NCBI GenBank assembly: GCA_004284765.1
Contig: NQJD01000022.1
Coordinates: 1-32,000, forward strand
DNA length: 32,000 bases
From: Candidatus Electronema aureum
GTDB lineage: Bacteria > Desulfobacterota > Desulfobulbia > Desulfobulbales > Desulfobulbaceae
Reading direction: 5' to 3'
Position numbers and translations under genes: made by a program. This document shows, one piece after another, positions 2,558 through 32,000 of this stretch (position 1 is the stretch's first letter; every line of letters begins with the position of its first letter). Below the pieces are notes generated by a model, which saw only the letters and a list, made by a program, of their open reading frames with translations, did no database searches and was not told where the DNA came from.

Positions 2558-3112
2558 ATGATGAAGGCAGCAGAATGCACGCTGTATCACGGCGGTCTCA
2601 AGGGCGCAGAAACTCTCTTTGGCGAGCTGGCAGAAAAATACGGCGCAAAGGAAGTGATCTTCACCTTTGAAGGTCACCGGTTGAACCGCGACCAAAACGC
2701 AGTGTTGCTGACCGAAGACGACCTCCAACGAGGTGACATCAGCATGGAAATCGCCTCGCGGATGATGAATCGCACCTACTATGAAACTGAAAAGATTCGG
2801 CGGGTACTGCAAGCCATTTTCCACATGGTCAACAAGGGCCATCAGGTCTTTGTCATTGGCACTATCTTAGAGGACAACTCGGTTAAGGGCGGCACTGGCT
2901 GGGCAGTGGAGTTAGCCAAGCTCTTTAATCGGCCTCTGCATGTTTTTGATCAGAATCGCAAGGGCTGGTTCACGTGGCATGATGGGATTTGGCAGCCAGA
3001 GGAACAAGCACGAATCTCCTTTGATACCTATGTTGGTTCAGGCACTCGCTATTTGAGCGATGAGGGGAAACTGGCCATTGAGCAGTTGTACGCTGACAGC
3101 TTTGGTGACTGA
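2558..3112 (+). CDS. hypothetical protein, possible SLOG/DprA-like Rossmann-fold protein
   Basis: ATG at 2558 is preceded by gaggtga (2546-2552). The upstream part of the track ORF (2459-2557) overlaps the cmoB tail. Motifs YHGGLKGAE and GGTGWAVELAKLFNRPLHVF resemble DprA/LOG-type nucleotide-binding folds. Function not established. Confidence 0.5.
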   Translation: MMKAAECTLYHGGLKGAETLFGELAEKYGAKEVIFTFEGHRLNRDQNAVLLTEDDLQRGDISMEIASRMMNRTYYETEKIRRVLQAIFHMVNKGHQVFVIGTILEDNSVKGGTGWAVELAKLFNRPLHVFDQNRKGWFTWHDGIWQPEEQARISFDTYVGSGTRYLSDEGKLAIEQLYADSFGD

Positions 3113-3214
3113 TTCAAAAGTCAATAGGGCAGGCCCGCCGCCGCCGGGCAGCCGCTGCTGCACAATGCCGCCGGCTTTGGTGACTGATTCAAAAGTCAAT
3201 AGGGCAGGCCCGCC
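3099..3214 (+). repeat. 41-bp perfect direct repeat, two copies (3099-3139 and 3174-3214), 75-bp period
   Basis: gctttggtgactgattcaaaagtcaatagggcaggcccgcc occurs twice, identically. The first copy contains the last codons and stop (3110-3112) of the upstream gene. The second copy continues into the hairpin agggcagg/cctgccct (3201-3208 / 3220-3227). Confidence 0.95.
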
Positions 3215-6011: not shown

Positions 6012-6319
6012 CCTCCAAAGCGTTTTTTGATGCGTTTGACCTTCTCGTCATAAACGCTGTTGGCCCAGAAAATATAAATGCCGGTCAAAATCCACGAAAG
6101 GATGATCACGCCGACCGCAATCGGAATGCCGATGGTGGTTGCTGATCCCTCGGCTATCTTTCTAGCCAGAAACGGCTTGTTGTAGGCAATCAGGCCAATG
6201 AAGCCGAAGTACAGCACCAGCTCGGTGATGGTCAAGATCAGAGAAACCTTGTTCTTCTGACGGGCAAGCTCCTTGAATTCAGGGTCTTCAAGGATGGCGT
6301 GAGGCGTTTTGTCGTTCAT
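6008..6319 (-). CDS. DUF485 (YjcH-like) small inner-membrane protein
   Basis: 103 aa with two TM segments and the motif [12 protein letters not shown]. It is the canonical partner gene upstream of actP. SD aaaggagga lies upstream. Confidence 0.85.
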
Positions 6320-7072: not shown

Positions 7073-7189
7073 AATTTTTCTCCTGTGTGGCATTTAAAGT
7101 TACGCAGAACATCTTAAACGCACTCTGCAATGTTGCCAACGGTCCGCTCATCGCATCTTTCGCACCGCTTTTCCGCCCGCCGGACCCGT

Positions 7190-7294
7190 CGAACAGACCA
7201 ATTTAGCCGTTCAACCGATGTTCAGGGCCGCAGAACGGCCAAACAGGTCTACTCAACAGCTAGTCGGAGCGTTTCTGCGGCCCGTACTATCCTT
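7190..7294 (-). repeat. Copy A of a ~100-nt imperfect repeat (leader-like structured element) upstream of the PAP2 gene
   Basis: Aligns with 8223-8322 over about 100 nt in the same orientation. An example shared block is gccgtt.aaccgatgttca.ggccg...aacggcc...aggtct..tcaac.gct.g.cgga. It contains the conserved hairpin ggccg-N5-cggcc. Confidence 0.7.
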
Positions 7295-8136: not shown

Positions 8137-8222
8137 TGTCTTCATGCGGAGATGTCGTCTATTCTTCTGCTCCTTTCTGCTTTTAAAAGGCGTTTGCAAG
8201 CCATTCAGCCGCCCTTCATATC

Positions 8223-8322
8223 CGAACAACAGACCCGCCGGGCCGTTGAACCGATGTTCAAGGCCGATAAACGGCCCCAAAGGTCTGTTCAACGGCTCGC
8301 CGGATACGTTCATCGTATCCTT
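8223..8322 (-). repeat. Copy B of the ~100-nt imperfect repeat, in the leader of the DapB-like gene
   Basis: See copy A. On the minus strand gccgttgaac pairs perfectly with gttcaacggc (10 bp), enclosing the hairpin ggccg-tttat-cggcc. It is preceded by the hairpin ggatacg-atgaa-cgtatcc. Confidence 0.7.
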
Positions 8323-14297: not shown

Positions 14298-15446
14298 GTG
14301 GATTATTTTCTGACTGAAGAACAGCGGATGATCAAAGAGACCGCCCGCGATCTGACCGAGGCGAAGATCATTCCCAAGCGGGCCGAGCTGGACGAGCGCA
14401 ACGAGTTCGCAGGCGAGCTGCTGGCTGACATCGCTAAAGCTGATCTCTTCGCCGTGCTGGTGCCCGAAGCCTACGGCGGCATGGGTGTTGGCATCTTTGA
14501 CATCGTGCTTGCTTTGGAAGAACTGGCGCGGGGCTGCGTCGGCGTGGCCACCAGCTTTGCCGCCTGCGGCCTTGGCATTTTGCCGATTCTCATTTCCGGC
14601 AGCGAGGAGCTGAAGGAGAAGTATCTGCCCGCAGTTGCTGAGGGCAAGAGCCTGGCCGCCTTTGGCCTGACTGAGGCCAATGCCGGTTCCGATGCGGCGG
14701 GCATCCGCACCACGGCTGTGGACGGCGGCGACTGCTGGATTCTCAACGGCACCAAGCAGTGGATCACCAACGGCGGCGAGGCGCAGATTTACTCCATCAT
14801 TGCCCTCACCAGCCCGGAGAAAGGCATACGCGGGGCCTCGATGTTTGTGGTTGAGGACGGCGATCCTGGCTTCTCCTACGGCAAGAAGGAGAACAAGATG
14901 GGCATCCGCGCCTCAGCCACCCGCGAGCTGGTGATGAAGGACTGCCGCATTCCTAAAGACCGGCTGATCGGCAGAAAGGGCCACGGCTTTATCACGGTGA
15001 TGAAGACCTTGGACGTGTCGCGGCCCGGCATTGCCAGCTTGGGCGTGGGCTTGGCGCAAGCGGCACTCGACGAAGCGGCAAGCTATGCCAAGCAGCGCGT
15101 GCAATTTGGCAAGCCGATCATCAGCTTCCAGGCTGTCCAGCACATGCTCGCAGATATGGCGATTCAGACCGAGGCGGCGCGGGGCTTGGTCTATGGCGCG
15201 GCCCGGCATATTGATGCGCATCCTGAGGACGCAAGCAAGGTCTCGTCCATGTGCAAGGTCTTTGCCACGGATGCAGCCATGAAGGTGACGACAGATGCGG
15301 TGCAGGTCATGGGCGGCTACGGCTACATGAAAGAGTATCCGGTTGAGAAGATGATGCGCGATGCCAAGATCCTGCAAATCTACGAAGGCACCAACCAGAT
15401 TCAGCGCAATGTGATTGGCCAGGAACTGAACCGGGAATACGCATGA
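14298..15446 (+). CDS. acyl-CoA dehydrogenase (short-chain / butyryl-CoA dehydrogenase type)
   Basis: 382-aa ORF with GTG start after aaggag. Motifs GLTEANAGSD, WITNG, and catalytic-Glu context IYEGTNQIQR. Confidence 0.9.
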   Translation: MDYFLTEEQRMIKETARDLTEAKIIPKRAELDERNEFAGELLADIAKADLFAVLVPEAYGGMGVGIFDIVLALEELARGCVGVATSFAACGLGILPILISGSEELKEKYLPAVAEGKSLAAFGLTEANAGSDAAGIRTTAVDGGDCWILNGTKQWITNGGEAQIYSIIALTSPEKGIRGASMFVVEDGDPGFSYGKKENKMGIRASATRELVMKDCRIPKDRLIGRKGHGFITVMKTLDVSRPGIASLGVGLAQAALDEAASYAKQRVQFGKPIISFQAVQHMLADMAIQTEAARGLVYGAARHIDAHPEDASKVSSMCKVFATDAAMKVTTDAVQVMGGYGYMKEYPVEKMMRDAKILQIYEGTNQIQRNVIGQELNREYA

Positions 15447-16222
15447 AGATTATCGTCTGCATCAAGCAGGTGCCAGATGCCAAAGACGTGCGCCTTGATC
15501 CCAAGACCAACACCTTAGCCCGTGAAGGCGTGGCCGCGATCATGAATCCCTTTGACCGCCATGCCTTGGAAGAGGCGGTGCGGCTGAAGGAGCAGCTTGG
15601 CGGCACGGTGACGGCGTTGTCAATGGGGCCGCCGCAGGCGAAAGAGGTGCTGCTGGAGGCGATTTCCTGCGGCGCGGACGAGGGTGTGCTGGTCTCTGAT
15701 CGGGCCTTTGCTGGCGCAGACACTTGGGCGACTTCCTACACCCTTGCCAAGGCTGTGCAGTGCTTGGGCGCGTTTGATCTGATACTCTGCGGCAAGCAGG
15801 CGATTGACGGCGACACGGCGCAGGTCGGGCCGGGACTGGCGGCGCAGCTCAAGCTGCCCTATGTCACCTGTGTGCAAAAGACCCGCGAGGCCAGTGCTGC
15901 CGCGCTCCGGGTGGAGCGGATGATGGATGACGGCTACGATGTGGTGCAGCTGCCGCTGCCTGCCTTGCTGACTGTGGTCAAGGACATCAACGAGCCACGG
16001 GTGTCCTCGCTGAAGGGCAAGATGAAGGCGAAGAAGGCGGAAATCCGGGTGCTTTCTGCTGCGGACATCAAGGCGGAGCCGCAGTGCATCGGCTTGGCTG
16101 GTTCGCCGACCAAGGTGGCGCGGGTGTTCTCGCCGGAGCCGCGCGGCAACCGGAAGATGTTCTCCGGCACAGCGGTGGAGCAGGTGACGCAGTTGGTGGC
16201 GGAGATTCAGGGGTATTTGTGA
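15443..16222 (+). CDS. etfB: electron transfer flavoprotein beta subunit
   Basis: MKIIVCIKQVPD N-terminus and CGKQAIDGDTAQVGP. ATGA overlap with the dehydrogenase gene. Confidence 0.9.
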   Translation: MKIIVCIKQVPDAKDVRLDPKTNTLAREGVAAIMNPFDRHALEEAVRLKEQLGGTVTALSMGPPQAKEVLLEAISCGADEGVLVSDRAFAGADTWATSYTLAKAVQCLGAFDLILCGKQAIDGDTAQVGPGLAAQLKLPYVTCVQKTREASAAALRVERMMDDGYDVVQLPLPALLTVVKDINEPRVSSLKGKMKAKKAEIRVLSAADIKAEPQCIGLAGSPTKVARVFSPEPRGNRKMFSGTAVEQVTQLVAEIQGYL

Positions 16223-16416
16223 AAGAGCAGCTTGATTTTTCTTGGGAAGGCGCATTAGCTGATCTGAAAGATCAATATACCTCTGTGGAGTTGCAGCACG
16301 AGGCGATGCAGTGGAGGATTGATGAACTTGATGCTGATGCTCGGAAGGGCGGCACAGAGTTGTTTATGCAGGACAAGCAGGCGAAGATTAGTTTGGAACA
16401 CAAATTAAAAATGTGA
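16219..16416 (+). CDS. small hypothetical acidic protein (65 aa), start overlapping the etfB stop
   Basis: The GTG at 16219 overlaps the etfB TGA (ttGTGAaa). The ORF ends 10 nt before the antitoxin ATG. No recognised domain; coding status uncertain. Confidence 0.35.
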   Translation: MKEQLDFSWEGALADLKDQYTSVELQHEAMQWRIDELDADARKGGTELFMQDKQAKISLEHKLKM

Positions 16417-16426
16417 GGGAAAAATC

Positions 16427-16696
16427 ATGCCAGAGCTTGCTACAACTAAAATGTCATCGAAAGGGCAAGTAATCATACCGGAAGAAATACGCAAGCGCCT
16501 TAACTTGAAAAGCGGCACTCAATTCGTTATTGTTGCCGATAAAGATGTTGTTGTTTTAAAAAACATTACGCCACCTTCAATGGACGAATTTGATACGCTC
16601 ATCGCACAGGCGCGGGCGGCAGGGAAAGAGTCTGGCTTAAAAAAGAAGGATATTCAAGAAGCGATCATAAAGGCCAGAGGAACTGCCAAGAAGTGA
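16427..16696 (+). CDS. AbrB/MazE/SpoVT-family antitoxin
   Basis: SSKGQVIIPEEIRKRLNLKSGTQFVIV is the swapped-hairpin SpoVT-AbrB signature. Its stop overlaps the toxin start (GTGA). Confidence 0.85.
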   Translation: MPELATTKMSSKGQVIIPEEIRKRLNLKSGTQFVIVADKDVVVLKNITPPSMDEFDTLIAQARAAGKESGLKKKDIQEAIIKARGTAKK

Positions 16697-17103
16697 AGAT
16701 AGTTCTTGACACCAATGTGTTTATATCTGCCATATTTTTCGGAGGTCAGCCAGCTAAGATTCTTCAAGCATGGAGAGACCGAAAAATTCAGATAGTGCTT
16801 TCAGAGGAAATTTTAAGCGAATATCATCGAATAGCGGAGGGACTATCGGAAAAATATCCTAAGATTGATATCGGGCGTTTTTTTGAGTTGTTGATTCATT
16901 ACAGCGAGATGATTGAAACGCAACATGTATCTGTTGCGGCTTGTGAAGATTCAGATGATGACAAGTTTCTTGCATGTGCGATTGCAAGCGGCAGCAAGCT
17001 GATAGTAAGCGGTGATAAACATCTGTTGCATGTTTCTGGATATGAAGGGATTTCTGTGCTGAAGCCGAGAGAATTCGTTGATATTCATCTGAAAGAAATA
17101 TGA
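16693..17103 (+). CDS. PIN-domain toxin (VapC-like ribonuclease)
   Basis: (V)KIVLDTNVFISAIF, LSEEIL, DSDDDKFLACA, SGDKHLL supply the conserved acidic PIN residues. Order is the canonical antitoxin-then-toxin. Confidence 0.85.
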   Translation: MKIVLDTNVFISAIFFGGQPAKILQAWRDRKIQIVLSEEILSEYHRIAEGLSEKYPKIDIGRFFELLIHYSEMIETQHVSVAACEDSDDDKFLACAIASGSKLIVSGDKHLLHVSGYEGISVLKPREFVDIHLKEI

Positions 17104-17120
17104 ATAAAAAATACCGTATT

Positions 17121-17172
17121 ATTTTTACCGGCACAGCAGCGGAGCAGGTGACGGAAATTAGAGGTATTCATG
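17121..17172 (+). repeat. degenerate duplicate of the etfB 3' end
   Basis: 17128-17153 matches 16164-16189 at 24/26 nt. After a 12-nt gap relative to etfB, 17154-17178 matches 16202-16227 (18 of 26 aligned columns). At protein level this is FTGTAAEQVT-EIRGIH versus the etfB C-terminus FSGTAVEQVTQLVAEIQGYL. Confidence 0.8.
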
Positions 17173-17979
17173 AACAAGAAGATTGTTGATAATTTTTCAA
17201 AAAGGTATAGGTACAAGAATGCTGAGGAAGTTGAAATCACTATCCGTGAGGATGCGCCTCAGGAATTCAGAGCCTTTCTCATCGAGTTATTATACGAGTT
17301 TGGTTTTACTCCGAGCAGACTAAGAAAAATATTTTGTCTTGTTTTAAGACAAGTGCCAGATGAGGGCAATTGGTCTGAGTACCCAAATATTGATGGAGAA
17401 ATCAGAGGATTATTGCGTGATTGTGAGTGGTTTAAAGTTTATGACATCTTGGAAAAGATACTCCAAGATGATCGTTCTCATTTTAATCGAGATAAATTTA
17501 CTACAGAGGTGAACAATTTCTTTATTGAGGAGGGGTACGGTTGGAAAATAAATCAATCTTTAATTGAAATGCGTGGAGATAGATCTTTTGAACTTATTGT
17601 AAAGTCAGCTAGTGATAAATTAGCTGACGATCAATATAGTACAGCAAGCAAAGAATTATATCAGGCGTTAAAAGACTTATCAAGAAGACCTTCTTCAGAT
17701 ATAACAGGAGCTATTCAGCATTCAATGGCTTCTCTTGAATGTGTTGCACGGGAAATTACCGGAGATCGAAAGGCAACTCTCGGCGAGATAATGAGTAAAC
17801 ATAAGGGGCTAATTCCAGCTCCTTTGGATGAAGCTGTAACAAAAGCATGGGGATTTGCTTCTGAGTATGGCAGACATATTAGAGAAGGTCGTGAGCCAGC
17901 CTTTCAAGACGCAGAATTAATTGTCGGAATATGCTCATCTATTGGAAGTTATCTTTTAGGTTTAAAGAAAGCAAAATAA
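17170..17979 (+). CDS. AbiJ-like protein (AbiJ N-terminal-domain-like + helical HEPN-like C-terminal domain), candidate abortive-infection/defence gene
   Basis: 269-aa AT-rich ORF. The N-terminus FSKRYRYKNAEEVEITIREDAPQEFRAFLIELLYEFGF resembles the AbiJ-NTD pattern (FS-R-GY...I...D-P..LR..L). The C-terminal helical region has a GRHIREGR patch. This is a recognition-level call only. Confidence 0.55.
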   Translation: MNKKIVDNFSKRYRYKNAEEVEITIREDAPQEFRAFLIELLYEFGFTPSRLRKIFCLVLRQVPDEGNWSEYPNIDGEIRGLLRDCEWFKVYDILEKILQDDRSHFNRDKFTTEVNNFFIEEGYGWKINQSLIEMRGDRSFELIVKSASDKLADDQYSTASKELYQALKDLSRRPSSDITGAIQHSMASLECVAREITGDRKATLGEIMSKHKGLIPAPLDEAVTKAWGFASEYGRHIREGREPAFQDAELIVGICSSIGSYLLGLKKAK

Positions 17980-18058
17980 TTTTATAACAAAGCAAGAAGT
18001 TAAATTCCATGGCAGCAAATTTATCCGCAGTGCAATTCATACTGAATTTTATACTGTC

Positions 18059-19252
18059 ATGCTCATAGTTGACACCACCCTATGTATCGGCTGCGGAGTC
18101 TGCGAAGCCAACTGCGCCTTTGGAGCGATCATCCTCAAGGACGGCGTTGCCGTGGTCGGCGATGGCTGCAAGCTCTGCGGTTCCTGCGTGGACAACTGCG
18201 AACCCGGTGCCTTGCGCATTGAAACCGCTGCCAAAGCCGCGCCAAGCGATCTGTCCGCGTGGTCTGGCATCTGGGTCTTTGCTGAAGCGCGGCACGGCGT
18301 GGTTGCGCCAGTGGCTTTTGAGCTGCTGGGCATCGGCAGAAAGCTGGCTGATCAGCGCGGCACTGCCTTGACCGCTGTGCTGCTGGGTGCCAGTGTCGAG
18401 AGCAAGGCCGCCGAGCTGATCGCCGCAGGCGCGGACAAGGTGCTGCTCGCTGATGACCCCGCGCTTGCTCAGTACCGCGAGGACGTGTACGGCAAGGTGC
18501 TGGAGCATTTGATTCTTCAGCATAAACCTGAAGTGGTGCTGGCCGGAGCAACCGCCATTGGCCGCTCGGTCATTCCGCAGGTGGCGAATGTTCTTGGCGC
18601 GGGCCTGACCGCCGACTGCACCGCTCTTGCCATCCGCGCCGAAGACGGCGTGCTGCTGCAAACCCGCCCGGCCTTTGGCGGCAACATCATGGCAACGATT
18701 GAATGCCCGCAAACCCGGCCTCAGATGGCGACGGTGCGGCCTAATGTCATGGCCCCGATTGTGCCAGATGCAGCCCGCAGCGGCGAGGTGATCAAAGTGC
18801 CGCTCGCGCCGGATCTGCTGGCCTCCAAGGTCGAAGTGCTGGAAACGGTGTTCAGTCAGGAGCAGCAGGCCAATATTCAAGAGAAGGAAGTGCTGGTCAG
18901 CGGCGGGCGCGGCTTGGCAAGCGAGAAAGGCTTTGCCCTGCTTCACGAGCTGGCGAGCGAGCTGAACGGCGCGGTGTCTGCCTCGCGAGCCGCTGTGGAC
19001 GCAGGCTGGATCGGCTATCCCTGCCAGGTCGGCCAGACTGGCAAGACGGTCAGCCCGAAGCTCTACATCGCCTGCGGCATTTCCGGCGCGGTGCAGCACA
19101 CGGTCGGGATGCAGTCCGCCGAAACCATCGTCGCCATCAACCGCGACGAAAAGGCCCCGATCTTCGACCTCGCCACTTACGGCTTGGTTGGCGATCTTTT
19201 TGAAATCCTTCCCCTGCTGACGCAGAAAATCAGGGAGCAGCGCAGGCTATGA
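18059..19252 (+). CDS. etfA: electron transfer flavoprotein alpha subunit with N-terminal 2x[4Fe-4S] ferredoxin domain
   Basis: CIGCGVCEANC and CKLCGSCVDNCEP motifs are followed by an EtfA body with PKLYIACGISGAVQH. The stop overlaps the fabG ATG (ATGA). Confidence 0.9.
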   Translation: MLIVDTTLCIGCGVCEANCAFGAIILKDGVAVVGDGCKLCGSCVDNCEPGALRIETAAKAAPSDLSAWSGIWVFAEARHGVVAPVAFELLGIGRKLADQRGTALTAVLLGASVESKAAELIAAGADKVLLADDPALAQYREDVYGKVLEHLILQHKPEVVLAGATAIGRSVIPQVANVLGAGLTADCTALAIRAEDGVLLQTRPAFGGNIMATIECPQTRPQMATVRPNVMAPIVPDAARSGEVIKVPLAPDLLASKVEVLETVFSQEQQANIQEKEVLVSGGRGLASEKGFALLHELASELNGAVSASRAAVDAGWIGYPCQVGQTGKTVSPKLYIACGISGAVQHTVGMQSAETIVAINRDEKAPIFDLATYGLVGDLFEILPLLTQKIREQRRL

Positions 19253-21624: not shown

Positions 21625-22050
21625 ATGAAAATTGCAGTGGGCAGCGACCACGGCGGCTTTGAGCTGAAGCAGCAGGTGGTGGAATTTCTGAGCAAGGCCG
21701 GGTACGAGGTTGAGTCCGTGGGCTGCTTCGATCTGGCCTCGGTGGATTATCCCGATTTCGCCGAAAAGGTCTGCGCTTTGGTGAAGTCAGGGGCCTGCGA
21801 GCGGGGCATCCTCATCTGCGGCACCGGCATCGGCATGTCCATCGCCGCCAACCGGCACCGAGACATCCGCGCCGCCCTCTGCCACGAGGCCTTCACCGCC
21901 CGCATGAGCCGCGAGCACAACAACGCCAACGTCCTCTGTCTCGGCGCACGGGTGATCGGCCCGGAGCTGGCCTTGGAAATCGTGCGGACGTGGGTGGTGG
22001 CGGAGTTCGTGGGCGGCAGGCATCAGCGCAGATTGGATATATTGAGCTGA
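21625..22050 (+). CDS. rpiB: ribose-5-phosphate isomerase B
   Basis: MKIAVGSDHGGFELK, ILICGTGIGMSIAANR, HNNANVLCLGARV. Confidence 0.9.
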   Translation: MKIAVGSDHGGFELKQQVVEFLSKAGYEVESVGCFDLASVDYPDFAEKVCALVKSGACERGILICGTGIGMSIAANRHRDIRAALCHEAFTARMSREHNNANVLCLGARVIGPELALEIVRTWVVAEFVGGRHQRRLDILS

Positions 22051-22087
22051 TACGGGACTCCCGCTGTTTTCATTTTCAGAGAACTTT

Positions 22088-22118
22088 CGGCAGCCCTGCT
22101 CGGTGCTGCCGTTTTTTT
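22088..22118 (+). terminator. rho-independent terminator after rpiB
   Basis: Stem cggcagc (22088-22094) / gctgccg (22105-22111), followed by T7 (22112-22118). Confidence 0.8.
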
Positions 22119-22159
22119 ATTTATCATCGCCGGGTTATGTTAAACCAAAGAGCATTGAC

Positions 22160-23602
22160 ATGGATAAAAAACTTGATATTCTAAAAAGTATAGATTTTGG
22201 TCAATCGGTAGCTGAACAGGAAGCCGAAAAGTTAGAGATGTATTTCGTTAAGACACGTCAATGGAATCAGGTATATAAAGATGAAATAGATATCGTTTAT
22301 GGTCCTAAAGGAGCTGGTAAAAGTGCCATCTATTCTTTGATTGAAAAGTATGAACCGAGTTTTTTCCAAAAAAATATCGTGTTGATATTTGCTGAGAATC
22401 CAAGAGGAGCAACTGCTTTCAGCGATCTTGAAACAGCTCCTCCTTCTGATGAAAGATCATTTGTTAATTTATGGAAACTATATTTTCTTGTTTTAATAGG
22501 GGAACATTTTCAAATTTATGGCACACAAACACTTAATGGTTCAGATGTATTAAACACGTTAACAGAAAGCGGATTGCTTCAAAAAGGAAATACTCTCAGG
22601 TCGATACTAGGTAAAATTAAGAATTATATTTATAAATATTTTAATCCTCAATCTTTCGAGCCGAATGTATCGTTCAACGAACAAACTGACAGCATGGCAA
22701 AAAATGGCGCAAAATCTGTGGACGCTCTTTTTCATAAAGCTAATAAGGAACTTAAAAAATCAGAATTTAAAATTTGGTTTCTTCTTGACAGGCTGGATGT
22801 CGCCTTCGCAGACTCTCCTGGATTAGAAGAAAACGCTTTGAGGGCTTTATTTAAAACGTACTTAGATTTAATGGGATTTGAAAATTTTAAAATAAAAATT
22901 TTTTTAAGATTAGATATATGGAGAAAGATCACTAAAGAAGGTTTCAGAGAAGCTACTCATATTACCAAGTGCACAACTATAGAATGGGAAAGATCTTCCC
23001 TGCTTAATTTAGTTATCAGGAGACTATTAAATAATAATTTATTACTACGTTATTACAATATAGAAAAAGAAGAAGTATTATCGGATATCTCCTCTCAGGA
23101 GAAACTGTTTTATAAGATTTTTCCAAGAAAAATTGATATTGGAAAAAATCCAGACACGTTTGATTGGATATTAGGTCGTGTTGAAGATTCCCTCGGTTTA
23201 TCCGCACCACGTGATATTATCAATCTTATCAATGGTGCTATATCAGCACAGATAAAATCATTTGAATTAGGTGAAAATTCAACAGAAGAAACTGCTCTGT
23301 TCGGTCGAGCCAGTTTAAAGAAAGGTCTTGCTTATGCTTCAAGAGAAAAAACAGAAAAATATTTATTTGCTGAATATCCTTCTCTTCGAAAATATTTTGA
23401 CTCATTGCGTGGTGGAAAGGCAACACAGACATTAACCTCGCTTTCATCTCTCTGGAATTGTTCTGAAAACGAAGCGGAACAAATAGCGGCACAGATCGTG
23501 CAGACAGGATTCTGGAAAATTGAAAAGAAAGGACAGTCAACATACTGGATACATTTTATCTTTAGAGATGCTTTAGAGATTGTACAGGGTACCGCGAAAT
23601 AA
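22160..23602 (+). CDS. orphan P-loop NTPase (STAND/KAP-like; possibly the family annotated as Sll1717-type P-loop ATPase)
   Basis: 480-aa AT-rich ORF from ATG 22160. The track extension to 22103 would run through the rpiB terminator. Walker A GPKGAGKS, Walker-B-like [10 protein letters not shown], and a long helical C-terminal region. Confidence 0.7.
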
Positions 23603-23655
23603 ACTGGGTAACAGAGTTTTATACCTTGTTACCTAATAACTATCAGGCTAATATC

Positions 23656-24915
23656 ATGGCGATTTTGAAACAGACTGACCCGGATGTGCATCAATATATT
23701 CAGTACGAGCTGGAGCGGCAGGCAAACCAGCTGGAGCTGATCGCCTCGGAGAACATCGTCTCTCCGGCGGTGCTGGAGGCGCAGGGGTCTATTTTTACAA
23801 ACAAATACGCGGAAGGCTATCCCGGCAAGCGCTACTACGGCGGCTGCGACTACGCCGACAAGATCGAGACGCTGGCTATCGAGCGGGCGAAGGAGATTTT
23901 CGGGGCGGAGTATGTCAATGTCCAGCCGCATTCGGGCAGCCAGGCCAACATGGCGGTGTATTTTTCCTGCCTCAATCCGGGCGACAAGGTCTTGGGCATG
24001 GACTTGGCCCACGGCGGCCATCTCACGCACGGCGCGGCGGTCTCCTTCTCCGGCAAGCTCTTCAATTTCATGTCCTATGGTGTGAAGCGCGACACCGAAA
24101 CCATCGACATGGCCGAGGTGGAGCGAATCGCCTTTGAGAACCGGCCCAAGCTGATCGTGGCCGGAGCCAGTGCCTATCCGCGCATCATTGATTTTGAGCA
24201 TTTCCGCCATATTGCTGATCAGATCGGCGCACTGTTTATGGTGGATATGGCCCACATCGCCGGATTAGTTGCTGCGGGCGTGCATCCCTCGCCGGTGCCC
24301 TATGCCGATTTTGTCACCACCACGACCCACAAAACCCTGCGCGGGCCGCGCGGCGGCTTGATTCTGGCAAAGAAGAAATATGCCAAGGCGTTAGATTCCA
24401 ACATATTCCCCGGCATTCAGGGCGGGCCGCTGGTGCATGTGATCGCGGCCAAAGCGGTCAGCTTCAAGGAGGCGATGACTGAGGAATATCGTCAGTATCA
24501 GCGGCAGGTCGTGACCAACGCCCAGACGCTGGCCGTGCAGCTCAAAGGCCACAGCTTCCGCATCGTCTCCGGCGGCACGGACAACCATCTCATGCTGATT
24601 GATCTGAGCAGCAAGAGGCTGACCGGCAAGGAGGCCGAGCATCTGCTGGAAGAGGCGGGCCTGACCGTGAACAAGAACGCCATTCCCTTTGACACCCAGC
24701 CGCGCTTTGTCACCAGCGGCATCCGCATCGGCACGCCTTCCGTGACCACCAGAGGGCTGAAAGAGCCGGAGATGGTCAAAATCGCTGATTGGATCAACCG
24801 GGTGCTGACTACTAGAACTCCGGCGGTCATTGCCCAAGTACGGCAGGAAGTGCGGGAACTCTGCGAGGCATTGCCGCTTTATCCTGAGATGGCGCGGGAT
24901 GAGGAGTTCGCATGA
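23656..24915 (+). CDS. glyA: serine hydroxymethyltransferase
   Basis: [11 protein letters not shown]...[22 protein letters not shown] (PLP Lys). Confidence 0.95.
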
Positions 24916-28013: not shown

Positions 28014-28966
28014 GCCTCTTCCCGCTTTCCGCCCAGCACCTTGCGCACCACATAGATCGGCTTACCCTGTGATTCATGGTAAGTTCGCACCTGAAGTTCG
28101 CCCAGCAAGCCGATGGAAATGAACTGAATGCCCATGAAGAGCAGTAATACCGCCAGCAGAAGCAGGGGGCGGTCGGACAGCGGCATCCCAAAAAACGTCC
28201 GCTGGATGGTCATCAGCAGGGCCAAGGCAAAGCCAAGACCGCCGCTGAACATGCCCAGCATTCCGAAAACATGGATGGGGCGGGTGGCGTAGCTGAGGAG
28301 GAATTTGACCGTCATTAGGTCAAGTACCACGCGCAGCGTCCGGGAAATGCCGTACTTGGAGGTGCCAAAACGTCGGGGCCGGTGATTGGCCTTGATTTCG
28401 GTGATCCTGCCGCCTACGCCGCTGGCAATAGCCGGAATAAAGCGGTGCATCTCACCGTACAGATGAATGCCTTGAGTAATCTCTTTCCTGAATGTTTTCA
28501 GGGTACAACCGTAGTCGTGCAGATGCACACCAGTGACGGTGGAGATGATTTTATTCGCGATCATTGAGGGCAGGCGGCGGTTGAGAAACGGGTCTTGCCG
28601 CTTGTAGCGCCAGCCACTAACTAACTCATAACCTTCCTTCATTTTTGCCAGAAACATGGGTAGATCATGCGGATCGTTCTGCATGTCGCCGTCCATAGTC
28701 GCAATCACATCGCCGCTGGCGTAGTCGAAGCCTGCGGACATAGCGGCGGTCTGGCCAAAATTGCGCCGGAAGGAAACCACTACCACCTTACTGTCTTTTT
28801 GCTGAATCTTCTCCAGTAGCTCTAAGCTGGTGTCGCTGGAACCGTCATCCACAAAGACAATTTCGTGGTCGTGTTCAAGACTGTTCAGTACAGCTTTCAG
28901 CTCTTCGTAGAGCGGATTGATGTTTTCTTCTTCGTTGTAGATGGGAATGACGACAGAGAGTTTCAT
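28010..28966 (-). CDS. polyprenyl-phosphate glycosyltransferase (GT2; GtrB/ArnC/DPM1-like)
   Basis: VIPIYNEEENI, VDDGSSD, MDGDMQNDP, plus two C-terminal TM helices, the architecture typical of bactoprenol-phosphate sugar transferases. Confidence 0.85.
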   Translation of the reverse strand: MKLSVVIPIYNEEENINPLYEELKAVLNSLEHDHEIVFVDDGSSDTSLELLEKIQQKDSKVVVVSFRRNFGQTAAMSAGFDYASGDVIATMDGDMQNDPHDLPMFLAKMKEGYELVSGWRYKRQDPFLNRRLPSMIANKIISTVTGVHLHDYGCTLKTFRKEITQGIHLYGEMHRFIPAIASGVGGRITEIKANHRPRRFGTSKYGISRTLRVVLDLMTVKFLLSYATRPIHVFGMLGMFSGGLGFALALLMTIQRTFFGMPLSDRPLLLLAVLLLFMGIQFISIGLLGELQVRTYHESQGKPIYVVRKVLGGKREEA

Positions 28967-29077
28967 TGTTTTGATTTTTATTATAGTTAGACTGGTATCG
29001 AGTAGGGTTGTTCTTTAATGACGAGAATAGGAGTGGTTCAAGCTGTTTTCTATGAGCGAAGCTCATGGGAAAGATTT

Positions 29078-30532
29078 TCAAGAATGAAGCAAAGGCATCT
29101 TTCTGCTTGAAAAAATATTTTTATGGTAAGAAAAAATGCGATGAATCAGCAATGGAAGTGCTATAATTCCGCAATATACAGTTGGAATGCTAAACCTGAA
29201 ATCAGAAGAAGTGCTTATTATAATATAAGGGAACCAATAAATTAATCCTATAGAAAGTATCAACACGATTCTTCTATAGCTGTCTCCGAGATATGCTTTA
29301 TATGAAATTGCAGCAACAAGCTGTAGTATAATTAAAACTATATAAACCCAAACTCTATATAAATAAGTTTTCATTAAAAACCAATAGGCAACGTAAAATG
29401 ATTTTTCCATTGCAATTTTATGACGCATTTCAAGGTGCTTAGAAGGTTCATAAAGTACATCTTGTTTATCAGATGGTTTGTAAATATTAAATTCAAACGC
29501 AACAATCGCAGGAACATGCGGCACAGGCCACTTTATTCCAAGCATGTACAAGACAAGCCTGCTTCTCACCTTTAAATAAGCTGCCGGATATTTCAAGATT
29601 AACCTAATGAAATCTTTTTTGAAAATTTTATCTGGAAATTTATCCGCATTGTCCGTACACCTGTACGGATTAATGTGTGGCAGATATATGATACTACAAG
29701 TGTAAGGTTCGTAAAGCCTTTTTAATTGTTCAATGGTTAGTAACCTTCCAGTATCACTGAATACATATTCAGGAATAATATTTTTATTAAGCTCTACAGA
29801 CATTCCCCATAAATCCCATATAAATGTAGCATTTTCCATATGATGGACTACATTTTCTTTTTTTACAATACCATGAATAAGAAAGTTACTTAACTTAACT
29901 CCGCCATAAAAAAATATTGGAGTTAAAATTGTTATTAAAATTGTTTTTTTTGAGATACTGCTTTTAATTAAGATCGATAATATATATATAATATATGGAA
30001 GTAAACAAACTACAGAATTATGCCTCACAGATATAGTGTATATAAAAAATAAAATAGACAGCAATAAAAATATTTTTTTTCTGTTTAATTCAAATTTAAA
30101 AAGTAAGGCAAAAGACATGGAAAGTGAAACAAACACTGATACATCCTTCCAAATAACACCAGTGATAAAAAATATTGGCGGAAAAAAACAAATAAAGCAA
30201 ATAAAAATTACTCTATGAATTACTCTATGGTAGAAAATTCTTGCTAATAGCCATATAGACAAATTCAATATTATATATTGAAATATAAGCATACCTTGAG
30301 GTCCATATGTAATTTTATTTAAAACGATCCACAAATAGACCATCGACGGTGGAAACCAGCTGCTGATCATTTCTGGATTAGTAACTTGATACCATTGATT
30401 AACAGAGTCGCCTGACATGGCACCAGGATAAAAGATATAGATTCCAAACAATGCTATTGTTATACTTAAAAATAAGTCGAAATAGCTATCAACGAATGAT
30501 TTAAGGAAAACAGTACTAGTATACTTTTTCAT
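29078..30532 (-). CDS. polytopic membrane protein, GT-C-like (GtrC/ArnT-type) candidate glycosyltransferase; very AT-rich
   Basis: 484-aa ORF from ATG 30532 (aggaga SD 6 nt upstream). It has about 10 or more hydrophobic segments. An acidic first-loop motif PGAMSGDSVNQW is present. The gene is adjacent to the GtrB-like gene. The fold call is inference. Confidence 0.5.
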   Translation of the reverse strand: MKKYTSTVFLKSFVDSYFDLFLSITIALFGIYIFYPGAMSGDSVNQWYQVTNPEMISSWFPPSMVYLWIVLNKITYGPQGMLIFQYIILNLSIWLLARIFYHRVIHRVIFICFICFFPPIFFITGVIWKDVSVFVSLSMSFALLFKFELNRKKIFLLLSILFFIYTISVRHNSVVCLLPYIIYILSILIKSSISKKTILITILTPIFFYGGVKLSNFLIHGIVKKENVVHHMENATFIWDLWGMSVELNKNIIPEYVFSDTGRLLTIEQLKRLYEPYTCSIIYLPHINPYRCTDNADKFPDKIFKKDFIRLILKYPAAYLKVRSRLVLYMLGIKWPVPHVPAIVAFEFNIYKPSDKQDVLYEPSKHLEMRHKIAMEKSFYVAYWFLMKTYLYRVWVYIVLIILQLVAAISYKAYLGDSYRRIVLILSIGLIYWFPYIIISTSSDFRFSIPTVYCGIIALPLLIHRIFSYHKNIFSSRKMPLLHS

Positions 30533-30663
30533 TTGATATCTCCTGATGTATGTATTCAATCAGCAAAATAACTATATTGAATAAAGATGCCTTTTACATA
30601 TCTGTAGGCGTACACTGTTCAATATTTTCCTTACTCATTATACATAAATTTAATTTTTCTTTG

Positions 30664-32000
30664 CTAATACAAAAACACATCCGGCCAGTTATCATTGCCG
30701 GTATGGAAGCTCAGGCGCGCCGTATTGCTCATAGAAGAACCAATCGGCCAGAGGAAAATTTCATAATCTGCCGTGTCATGCTCATGCCCACCGGTGCTGG
30801 CTCCATAGACCAACAAATCGCCAGTGTTGGCGATTTTAGGAAAATATTCATGACTGTACTCGCTCGGTGAATCGAACCAAAGCTGCCGCTCCAGCGTGTC
30901 AGGATTGATCTTGTAGAAAACGTTCCCTTTTTCCCCATGCCCAACATGGTAGAGAAAAGAAGAATCCGGCGACCAGTTCAGCTCGCAGCCCTCGTTGACT
31001 TCGCGCACCGTCCTATCCGGCCCGATCAGATAGGTATAAACCGGACCGTTTTTCCGCATCGTCACCGCCAAACTCTGCCGGGCTTCACTCCACGCCGGAG
31101 TTTCTAAATACAGGGAAGCATCAAGCGGCAAGCTCTTTCCTGTTTCAAATACCACAGTCTCCTTCCCGGTGGCAAGAACATATTCGACGAACTGGTTTGC
31201 CTGCCGCTGAAAATAGATTTTTTTGCCATCCGCCGACCATGTGGGCGTGTTGGCGTTTTTTGCCAGTAAGCGGCTCTTGCCGGTGGGCAAATCGAGCAGC
31301 CAAGCGTCCCAAGGATATTTGTTGCGCTGCGAAACCCACGGTTCCTGCGAGCGGGCAAAGACCACCTTGCTGCCGTCCGGCGAAATGCGGGGAAAATAGT
31401 CGGTATGCGGGTCAGAAGTCAGGCGGGTCAGCTTGCGTTCTGGCAGGGTGAGCATGACCAGATCATGCGTACCAAAACGGTTGCTACTCCAGATAACAAA
31501 ACCGCGCAGCTTGGTCAAGATCGGATTAGCGGCCAGCTCTGCCTCAGCAGTAGGAATAGGCTGGCCGGGCTTAGGCGGACGAAAGGCTCCCATCTTGCCC
31601 ACGTTGCGGACTTGCAGGGCAAAGACAGCCAGCCCGGCGCAGAAGAGGCAGGCGGTTAACGGCAAGAGCCATTTTTTTCCCTGCGCCGTCGGAGCAATGC
31701 TGCTTCGGCGACCAAGCAAGATGATGAACAAAATTAAGGCAGCGATACCCAGTGCGTAATCAACAGCTTGGCTCCAGATATGCAGAGTCAGCATGACCAA
31801 AACCGAGGCGGTCTTGGCCGCGCCGAGGACGGTCAGGGCCAACGCGCCGCCTGCCTCGTAGGTACCGAAGCTCATGAAGGTCGGCACTGGCAGCGCGCTG
31901 CCAGCCTCGGCGCTGACCAACGCGACAAGCACCGCAGCAATATCCCGCCTCAGCTCTGGGAAGGAGGAAAGTGCAACACCGAGAAAAAGCAGATAAAGGC
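30664..32000 (-). CDS. membrane protein: flippase-like (UPF0104 / LPG-synthase TM-like) N-terminal region fused to a periplasmic PD40/TolB-like beta-propeller; 5' end outside the window
   Basis: The reading frame stays open to position 32000 (LYLLFLGVALSSFPELRRDIAAVLVAL...). PD40-like repeats are SPDGSKVVF, TWSADGKKIYF and NWSPDSSFLY. Confidence 0.6.
   Translation of the reverse strand, partial: LYLLFLGVALSSFPELRRDIAAVLVALVSAEAGSALPVPTFMSFGTYEAGGALALTVLGAAKTASVLVMLTLHIWSQAVDYALGIAALILFIILLGRRSSIAPTAQGKKWLLPLTACLFCAGLAVFALQVRNVGKMGAFRPPKPGQPIPTAEAELAANPILTKLRGFVIWSSNRFGTHDLVMLTLPERKLTRLTSDPHTDYFPRISPDGSKVVFARSQEPWVSQRNKYPWDAWLLDLPTGKSRLLAKNANTPTWSADGKKIYFQRQANQFVEYVLATGKETVVFETGKSLPLDASLYLETPAWSEARQSLAVTMRKNGPVYTYLIGPDRTVREVNEGCELNWSPDSSFLYHVGHGEKGNVFYKINPDTLERQLWFDSPSEYSHEYFPKIANTGDLLVYGASTGGHEHDTADYEIFLWPIGSSMSNTARLSFHTGNDNWPDVFLY

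Follow-up and report, generated by a model that had tools for sequence, protein, structure and literature searches.

The stretch analysed here comprises 32,000 nucleotides (nt) of the Candidatus Electronema cable bacterium Ca. Electronema aureum (contig NQJD01000022.1) and is referred to below as the window. Between etfB, the gene for the beta subunit of the electron transfer flavoprotein, and etfA it carries an island of toxin-antitoxin (TA) and candidate defence genes, and inside this island, between the toxin gene and an AbiJ-like gene, we found a degenerate second copy of the etfB 3' end (17113-17172). We consider it quite probable that this relic is the fossil of an older etfB/AbiJ junction, produced by recombinational displacement at a hotspot of the minimal mobile element type.

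The repeat itself is clear. Between 16164-16189 and 17128-17153, 24 of 26 positions are identical; a 12-nt gap follows, with cagttggtggcg missing from the relic, as well as one gap of a single nucleotide, and beyond the gap gagattcaggggtatttGTGA in the etfB end is aligned with gaaatt-agaggtattcATGA in the relic. While etfB terminates with ...TCCGGCACAGCGGTGGAGCAGGTGACGCAGTTGGTGGCGGAGATTCAGGGGTATTTGTGA, the stretch 17113-17172 reads ACCGTATTATTTTTACCGGCACAGCAGCGGAGCAGGTGACG, 12 missing nucleotides, GAAATT, one missing nucleotide and AGAGGTATTCATGA, a gap that is also visible in the MAFFT alignment. An ungapped repeat search extends the similarity to 16149-16189 and 17113-17153 (41 nt, 80%), of which the leftmost 15 nt match at only 9 positions and would be unconvincing alone. 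A local alignment (Smith-Waterman) of the etfB end against the island scored 47, compared to 20.5 ± 2.5 (maximum 30) for 1000 dinucleotide shuffles of the etfB-end query and 20.4 ± 2.3 (maximum 30) for 300 shuffles of the island, and an independent rerun of the window relic alignment gave z = 11.7; taken together, the runs scored 45-47 versus shuffle means of 19-20 ± 2.3. The relic is the top match to the etfB end in the whole window, with the reverse strand reaching 26. In both copies a downstream open reading frame (ORF) starts on the homologous xTGA, namely a 65-aa ORF at 16219 (GTGA) and the AbiJ-like gene at 17170 (ATGA), whose purine-rich AGAGG and ATG are contained in the relic. The initial annotation had described the repeat in these terms, with its identities, deletion and overlapping ORF starts, and the sequence bears this out, as does the shuffle test that it proposed. 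The window arrangement is not an assembly artefact, because Logan assemblies carry the same arrangement of etfB and island: etfB is identical in three of them (L001-L003), one of which spans the whole island with identical proteins, the other two being identical as far as they reach.

Translation of the relic in the frame of etfB yields RIIFTGTAAEQVT----EIRGI, compared to RKMFSGTAVEQVTQLVAEIQGYL* at the etfB end. This frame lies in a 29-aa ORF (MNKKYRIIFTGTAAEQVTEIRGIHEQEDC, 17100-17189, plus strand), which is called as a gene in L001/L174, L174 being another stretch of the L001 contig. We rejected it as a conserved micro-gene or coupling relay, and it is probably not a gene: in the related locus L171 the relic stands in a different frame, which the gene caller reads as an N-terminal extension of AbiJ, so that no relic peptide is conserved. 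Relic and etfB differ at 12-19 positions, with 8-10 changes from GC to AT versus 2-4 from AT to GC and about half of the mismatches at third codon positions (7/12 or 9/19), too few substituted sites to separate an allele of another genome from local decay. The window relic matches its own etfB end at 40/46 positions, other Electronema-type ends at 37-39/46 and Electrothrix-type ends at 29-31/46. A diverged donor, which the initial annotation had offered as one possible source, is thus not needed, and an assignment to the etfB of another lineage is not possible, the own end being the best match.

The etfB-etfA junction in related cable bacteria

For an overview of the junction we surveyed 153 loci holding both etfB and etfA, about 140 of them non-cable (other Desulfobulbales and more distant lineages). 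In the non-cable loci the etfB-etfA spacer has a median length of 17 nt, in contrast to 641-1836 nt in all cable-type loci; the sole non-cable locus above 500 nt is L136 (724 nt) from a distant lineage (EtfB 59%). A metagenome scan with EtfB yielded no close relatives (best 81%) and served the spacer statistics only. About ten cargo configurations occur in cable bacteria, comprising four kinds of PIN TA pairs, BrnT/A, AbiJ-like, Mrr_cat, Abi_C and unknown proteins, and the first cargo gene starts on or within ~4 nt of the etfB stop. The comparison loci, which carry L-numbers here, contain TA pairs of several types followed by further cargo: DUF2281-PIN and a 304-aa protein in L005, an antitoxin-PIN pair and an Mrr_cat nuclease-like protein in L006, the L006-type TA and an AbiJ-like gene in L167, BrnT/BrnA and an AbiJ-like gene in L168, the window-type TA (PIN 98%) and a HicB/BrnA-like ORF in L170, AbrB-PIN_3 (PIN 78% to that of the window) and an AbiJ-like gene in L171, the same TA as in L171 and an Mrr-like gene in L172, and AbrB-PIN, a HicB-like and an Abi_C gene in L176. 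L004 holds two small ORFs, and L007 a secreted-looking protein followed by RHH-PIN. No mobility genes were detected in Pfam scans of the cargo proteins tested. Sequence comparison thus supports the etfB-etfA junction as a repeatedly rewritten recombination hotspot specific to cable bacteria. From the window alone it had been taken for a recurrent integration or recombination site; recurrent use holds for these loci, and the sequences favour recombination, nothing in them indicating site-specific integration.

Three loci carry an AbiJ-like gene as first cargo. In L164/L165 it is the only cargo: etfB reads ...GGGGTATTTGTGAATAAGAAGATC..., the start codon of the AbiJ-like gene overlaps the etfB stop (GTGA), and there is no TA between. 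In L166 (Ca. Electrothrix aarhusensis) the AbiJ-like gene starts 10 nt past etfB and is followed by a lone RHH antitoxin. The AbiJ-only junctions that the initial annotation had suggested looking for in relatives hence do exist, as does the state it had postulated, with AbiJ directly after an etfB stop. With AbiJ immediately behind etfB established as an actual state of the locus, the window relic would be the remains of that junction.

The most informative comparison is that of L164, which lacks a TA pair, and L171, which has one. The two loci are 98-100% identical in the left (~2.5 kb) and right (~2.8 kb) flanks, and their etfB genes are identical from nt 1 to 452, with 23 differences located within the last 328 nt. 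From its first relic base on, L171 is an exact match of 198 nt to the functional etfB end of L164 plus AbiJ, while its own functional etfB end, GTAAGTCAGCTTGTGGAGGAGATTAAG followed by AbrB-PIN, agrees with its own relic at only 30/41 positions. Since the relic equals the L164 end and the own functional end is diverged, the functional end of L171 would be foreign and the relic resident; judged from these sequences, the cassette most likely arrived together with a foreign etfB 3' segment, displacing the resident end. The pair also speaks for the earlier proposal that the 0.9-kb cassette of the window was inserted or recombined in later, L171 corresponding to L164 plus AbrB-PIN_3, and so does L170, which has the cassette of the window and the same relic without its deletion. 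We infer the direction of the event from composition: in the divergent tract the unique-site fraction is 0.089 for L164, compared to 0.104 in the rest of the gene, and shifted to 0.067 for L171, which gives modest support to L171 as the recombinant and to the L164 tract as native to the clade.

Besides the window, five TA-bearing arrangements have an etfB-end relic right after the TA stop (L170, L005, L171/L172/L173, L168 and L176). The relic of L170 comprises 74 nt and has the same left edge as that of the window; because it lacks the 12-nt deletion, the deletion occurred later, in the lineage of the window. It agrees with the etfB end of L005 at 55/59 positions and with its own at 52/59. In L005 the relic consists of ~40 nt plus GTAAATAAG, the first AbiJ codons (z = 16.2), and in L171/L172/L173 of 33-41 nt. 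The L176 relic (21-29 nt) runs 8-9 nt past the stop into the start of the next gene and scores 33 versus a shuffle maximum of 30; that of L168 was seen by eye only, with a weak score (best 29 against etfB ends). L164 and L166 showed no significant relic. L007 represents a mirror case, in which a 55-nt relic of the etfA 5' end (6185-6239; ATG plus 18 codons, MPIVNTETCIGCGLCQTN; 80% identical, z = 17.5) precedes the RHH-PIN pair that adjoins etfA. This pair has a promoter-like TTGACA...TAATAC of its own and a palindrome, GTAATACACCTTGTATTAC. A relic length that varies and the fact that either flank can be duplicated argue against a fixed att site or a fixed target-site duplication. Relic-flanked cassettes, which the initial annotation had recommended searching for elsewhere, were thus found at the etfB-etfA junction of relatives, and no other gene-end relic was detected in the 32-kb window, including the islet between rpiB and glyA described below.

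The best-preserved part of the relics is the last ~15 nt (AGAGGTATTCATG in the window, GGAGGTATTTATG in L170, GGGGGTATTTGTG in L171), probably preserved through use as ribosome-binding stretch and start codon of the next gene. Overlaps of stop and start codons generally imply translational coupling. The relics of L171 and of the window and L170 have 'ATAAAAAAT' after PIN in common, as well as a CGGCACAG motif, which leaves a single founding event for them ambiguous. In L171 (3684-3710) and L176 (1132-1140), ~9-26 nt after the etfB stop resemble the start of a HicB-like gene (GAGCAGACGAATAC). This remnant suggests that the AbrB-PIN cassette may have originated at a junction of etfB with a HicB-like gene and only afterwards have been transferred to its place before AbiJ.

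Comparison of further loci points to cargo moving between genomes. Over 1500 nt covering etfB and the TA pair, up to …AATGCGGCA, L171 and L172 agree at every base; they diverge from the first relic base on, with AbiJ-like cargo beyond it in one and Mrr-like cargo in the other. The L172 relic contains an in-frame TAG and is therefore a true pseudo-end rather than a mis-joined functional etfB end. At the junction of the two loci, ...AATGCGGCA followed by CAGTTGG agrees with GTGGCGCAG of etfB at 7/9 positions, a resemblance that could reflect microhomology at an illegitimate joint and would equally fit a crossover inside an older relic. Between the window and L170 the TA block is 96-100% identical, core genes 84-94% and the relics 82%, and the downstream genes differ; on this comparison the relic appears to go with the downstream cargo, not with the TA. 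Cargo can also be more alike than its flanks, with 89% for AbiJ versus 77% for etfB between L164 and L167 and 88% for the TA pair versus 76% for etfB between L167 and L006. Homologs of the window PIN protein with at least 75% identity sit directly after etfB in cable-type loci in all four cases looked up, and a 69% homolog sits in an unrelated context. Given such homologs behind etfB and cargo more alike than its flanks, the site would thus have its own circulating cassette pool. From the seven closest homologs of the AbiJ-like protein (69-91%) five were looked up, and all five are located between etfB and etfA or directly before an etfA start, which marks the AbiJ-like gene as an apparently recurrent resident of the cable-bacterial junction; an exact look-up of the window protein gave no record.

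Proposed displacement of the resident etfB end and its alternatives

We propose that the conserved etfB and etfA flanks mediate the exchange of TA and defence genes. In the ancestral state the start codon of the AbiJ-like gene would have lain on the etfB stop codon. TA cassettes would then have entered on DNA bearing its own etfB 3' part, with the left join made by a homologous crossover inside etfB and the right join some tens of nucleotides before the resident stop codon of etfB; for L007 the anchoring homology would lie in etfA instead. The incoming DNA would supply a working etfB end and the resident end would be shifted downstream, still attached to AbiJ, where it would keep the ribosome-binding stretch and start codon of AbiJ while the remainder decays through AT-ward changes and the 12-nt deletion. 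For the first right-hand join there are two candidates, homology-facilitated illegitimate recombination (HFIR) and, if the donor brought a relic with it, pairing of that relic with its homologous counterpart. HFIR would fit as a source of this join. Once a relic exists, pairing of a donor relic with a naive etfB end could make later insertions fully homologous.

Several points weigh against this proposal. The direction of the L164/L171 event, gain or loss of the TA pair, is inferred from a modest compositional signal only. L004, L006 and L167 hold cargo yet show no significant relic, and L006 has only the 12-nt GGTATTTGATAG at the expected place. Near-identity between genomes breaks off within very few bases of where each etfB-end copy has its inner edge, and such sharp edges are not predicted by simple crossovers inside the arms and could hint at a more precise mobilising activity. 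The loci, finally, come mostly from metagenome assemblies.

Rather than being merely a fossil, the relic might still function, as right-hand homology arm of a TA cassette that is 'recombination-armed', an extension that we regard as tentative and rather doubtful. An addiction module bracketed by two copies of the 3' end of its target could enter any naive etfB end by RecA-type recombination, integrase-free, leaving etfB undamaged and irrespective of the downstream gene, and post-segregational killing would favour recombinants whose crossover fell in the relic, the TA being retained. Such an arm would explain the same TA block in front of different units of relic and cargo, blocks of near-identity ending at the left edge of the relic and the mirror arrangement of L007 at the etfA start.

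An unlikely alternative is the Campbell-type insertion of a circle, a model put forward for Rhs C-terminal displacement, in which recombination between etfB end and relic excises one repeat together with the TA pair, and a single crossover with the etfB end of another genome re-inserts it and recreates the duplication. The direct repeats that flank the TA cassette in the window, L170, L005, L171 and L176 would be expected from such a circle, as would near-identity that stops at the inner repeat edges, and the variable relic length resembles the Rhs 'core fragments' (PMC2935791). However, the foreign tract of L171 relative to L164 extends 328 nt into etfB. A circle with a repeat of at most 74 nt could not deliver such a tract, which leaves linear DNA and a homologous crossover in etfB as the simplest explanation and led us to reject the circle as sole mechanism. 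It moreover requires a pre-existing duplication, so that the first event stays unexplained, and no circle was observed.

Still less probable is site-specific integration by a recombinase encoded elsewhere, integron-like or in the manner of a mobilisable islet, with the etfB 3' end as att site and the relic as attR. Repeated insertion at a single gene end, the constant position of the first cargo gene on or within ~4 nt of the etfB stop and the sharp block edges would suit it. Against it stand the relic lengths (21-29, ~33-41, ~40 and 59-74 nt), the duplication of the etfA 5' end on the other side in L007 and the 328-nt co-transferred etfB tract, which is unexpected from att recombination. Furthermore, Pfam showed no recombinase domain among the island genes or scanned neighbours, tRNA and Rfam searches of the window locus gave no match, and the etfB end folds no better than shuffles (z = -0.67) and forms no attC-like hairpin. 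Inverted repeats were not found at the cassette ends.

Marginally less credible again is a duplication in situ of the etfB/AbiJ junction by slippage or unequal sister exchange, followed by cargo insertion and neutral decay, with no foreign etfB involved. The window relic does share a lineage-specific ACG (Thr) codon with its own etfB, and the excess of GC-to-AT differences is what decay predicts. The L164/L171 pair disfavours this explanation, since there the functional end is the diverged copy and the relic is identical to the functional end of L164; in addition, the L170 relic is closer to the etfB end of L005 than to its own, and the TA blocks are much younger than the flanks. Finally, chance similarity or an assembly artefact, for which only the short length of the repeat could be cited, has a negligible probability and is refuted by a score that no shuffle reached, by the same arrangement in independent assemblies, by the homologous L170 relic with its identical left edge and by the in-frame TAG of L172.

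Genes of the window island and other islets

All genes of the locus lie on the plus strand. The acyl-CoA dehydrogenase gene acd (14298-15446; Pfam Acyl-CoA_dh_N/M/1) is the first of the acd-etfB-etfA-fabG block, and its position 5' of etfB is kept in nearly all related loci. The left border of the hotspot is the intact etfB (15443-16222; Pfam ETF, 1.3e-48), whose product is 96% identical to EtfB of Ca. Electronema sp. JM and Desulfobulbaceae UBA5173, 92% to that of Ca. Electronema halotolerans and 85% to that of Ca. Electrothrix marina. In its 3' end, the gene-attached copy of the repeat (16149-16222), the homology is robust from 16164, in the relic (17113-17172) from 17128, with the internal deletion after 17153. 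The right border is etfA with an N-terminal ferredoxin domain (18059-19252; Pfam ETF, ETF_alpha, Fer4). The island (16223-18058) has a GC content of 0.35-0.44 compared to 0.60-0.65 in the flanks. All its genes are oriented in operon direction, each starting on or near the preceding stop codon, and no terminator-like sites were found in the island, where ~3 would be expected.

If the resident etfB end was displaced as proposed, the window would comprise at least three layers, a truncated DUF2281 antitoxin gene, the AbrB-PIN_3 pair, and the relic with AbiJ. The 65-aa ORF that starts on the etfB stop (16219-16416) has a weak Pfam DUF2281 match covering its C-terminal half, and its residues 4-33 match residues 44-74 of a complete DUF2281 antitoxin encoded behind etfB in L005 (BLASTP 81%, E = 2e-17; full-length Pfam match, 1.4e-15). 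We thus read it as the stump, the 3' half, of the antitoxin gene of an earlier TA pair and not as a gene of its own, and the 0.9-kb cassette would itself be layered. Its counterpart in L170 carries a further in-frame deletion of 87 nt. The AbrB/MazE-fold antitoxin gene of the resident pair (16427-16696; Pfam MazE_antitoxin, 2.6e-08) and the PIN_3 toxin gene (16693-17103; Pfam PIN_3, 1.7e-20) overlap by 4 nt (16693-16696), as in type II TA, an organisation consistent with a predicted type II TA pair. The PIN stop is immediately followed by an imperfect hairpin rich in A/T (AATAAAAAATA / TATTATTTTT, 17100-17127), which extends into the weakly matching left margin of the relic; folded as DNA, 17095-17180 gives z = -3.4, and L170 contains a similar stretch. 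The AbiJ-like gene (17170-17979) is a candidate defence gene, with AbiJ_NTD4 (Pfam, 1.3e-22) covering residues 7-147, a full-length match to PADLOC PDC-S32 (5.6e-29) and no Pfam match in the C-terminal half. Known AbiJ-like abortive-infection proteins combine an AbiJ N-terminal domain with a C-terminal effector (HEPN) domain. The spacer between AbiJ and etfA (17980-18058) shows a resemblance by eye between the window, L168, L164, L167 and L171.

Some cargo genes of the relatives are mosaic. L004 (5777-5956), L170 (1937-2254) and L176 (1858-2265) each combine an N-terminus of BrnA type (MKDEYDFTDAE.GKFY) with the LLKKPLKIPEFKPLTREEIY motif that the L006/L167-type antitoxin has at its C-terminus; in the latter two, a HicB-like N-terminal part precedes this combination. 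The AbiJ-like gene of L173 (889-1776) as well as acd and etfA of L166 (3091-4208 and 6076-7274) are each split into two ORFs by decay or sequencing errors.

A second variable islet (22051-23625) lies between rpiB (21625-22050) and glyA (23626-24915) of the window. It encodes a 499-aa low-GC (0.31-0.39) protein matching the PADLOC candidate PDC-M28C (1.3e-18); rpiB and glyA are neighbours in L166, and in L164 a D12 methyltransferase follows rpiB. Two more low-GC islets (GC 0.28-0.39) are located at 1-1400, with a DUF4145 protein at 685-1371, and at 28800-30900, where a 493-aa ORF with no Pfam match (29078-30559, minus strand) stands between genes for a glycosyltransferase and a PD40-repeat protein. 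Two pairs of direct repeats are unrelated to the relic (3092-3139 / 3167-3214, 48 nt, 94%, spaced 75 nt; 7173-7268 / 8209-8304, 96 nt, 72%, spaced 1036 nt).

Comparison with known systems

The locus constitutes a legible record of TA and defence cassettes entering and stacking inside a conserved operon without a mobility gene, in which a near-identical strain pair captures the states before and after and gene-end fossils give the order of events. The etfB-etfA site could serve as a strain marker for cable bacteria and as a natural 'landing pad' that tolerates inserts. If the relic does act as a homology arm, it would illustrate one way in which addiction modules spread by host recombination alone. 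Cable bacteria are not available in pure culture, lack a genetic system and are not known to undergo natural transformation; in the literature we found no paper on this locus or on TA/defence islets in cable bacteria.

Integrative elements that target the 3' ends of genes, with att sites in tRNA or protein genes, carry a replacement end. The hotspot resembles them in having an insert bordered by direct repeats of the target 3' end and a target gene that remains whole, but it differs in having no integrase, no fixed core, variable repeats, the etfA mirror case and a long homologous tract.

A closer parallel in layout is the displacement of C-terminal parts in Rhs/CDI (contact-dependent inhibition) systems (Jackson et al. 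2009, PMC2935791), where likewise an intact gene is followed by a displaced 3' fragment of variable length on older cargo, and where the DNA that comes in, low in GC, includes a copy of the conserved part. The etfB relic, in contrast, is not fused to a toxin domain but ends at the old stop, after which a separate AbiJ-, HicB- or Mrr-like gene follows; etfB is a metabolic gene with an invariant product, and its cargo comes as individual genes (TA pairs, Abi, nuclease). In the effector arrays of the type VI secretion system (Kirchberger et al. 2017, PMC5361080) a non-homologous module is added behind a conserved upstream anchor, the older module is shifted downstream, and spread afterwards proceeds by ordinary homologous recombination, much as we propose here. 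There, however, orphan immunity genes are left and not a duplicated end of the anchor gene, whereas the older cargo AbiJ would here stay intact and expressed. Because its relic is not fused to a toxin tip, the etfB locus is not a member of either displacement family. HFIR, as outlined through the references given in PMC5361080 and in PMC2884548, shares with L171 versus L164 a donor tract that is homology-anchored on one side, here with 23 differences in the last 328 nt of etfB. On the other side, HFIR joins DNA at a microhomology of 3-10 nt, and it depends on linear DNA being taken up through natural competence or an equivalent route.

Compared at the sequence level, the etfB-etfA hotspot corresponds to minimal mobile elements (Saunders & Snyder 2002; Snyder et al. 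2007) as their definition is quoted in PMC3082526. Conserved flanking genes that are adjacent in relatives enclose different whole-gene cassettes in each strain, which have no mobility genes of their own and are exchanged by homologous recombination of the flanks; recombination of the flanks is indicated indirectly by the 328-nt diverged etfB tract beside the insert in the near-identical pair and by cargo more alike than its flanks. In contrast to those elements, the etfB site is situated within a block of co-transcribed housekeeping genes (acd-etfB | etfA-fabG), its hosts are uncultured cable bacteria, and the cassettes are stacked, not only swapped, leaving dated gene-end fossils. The locus is thus a clear and well-documented example of such exchange, not a new principle.

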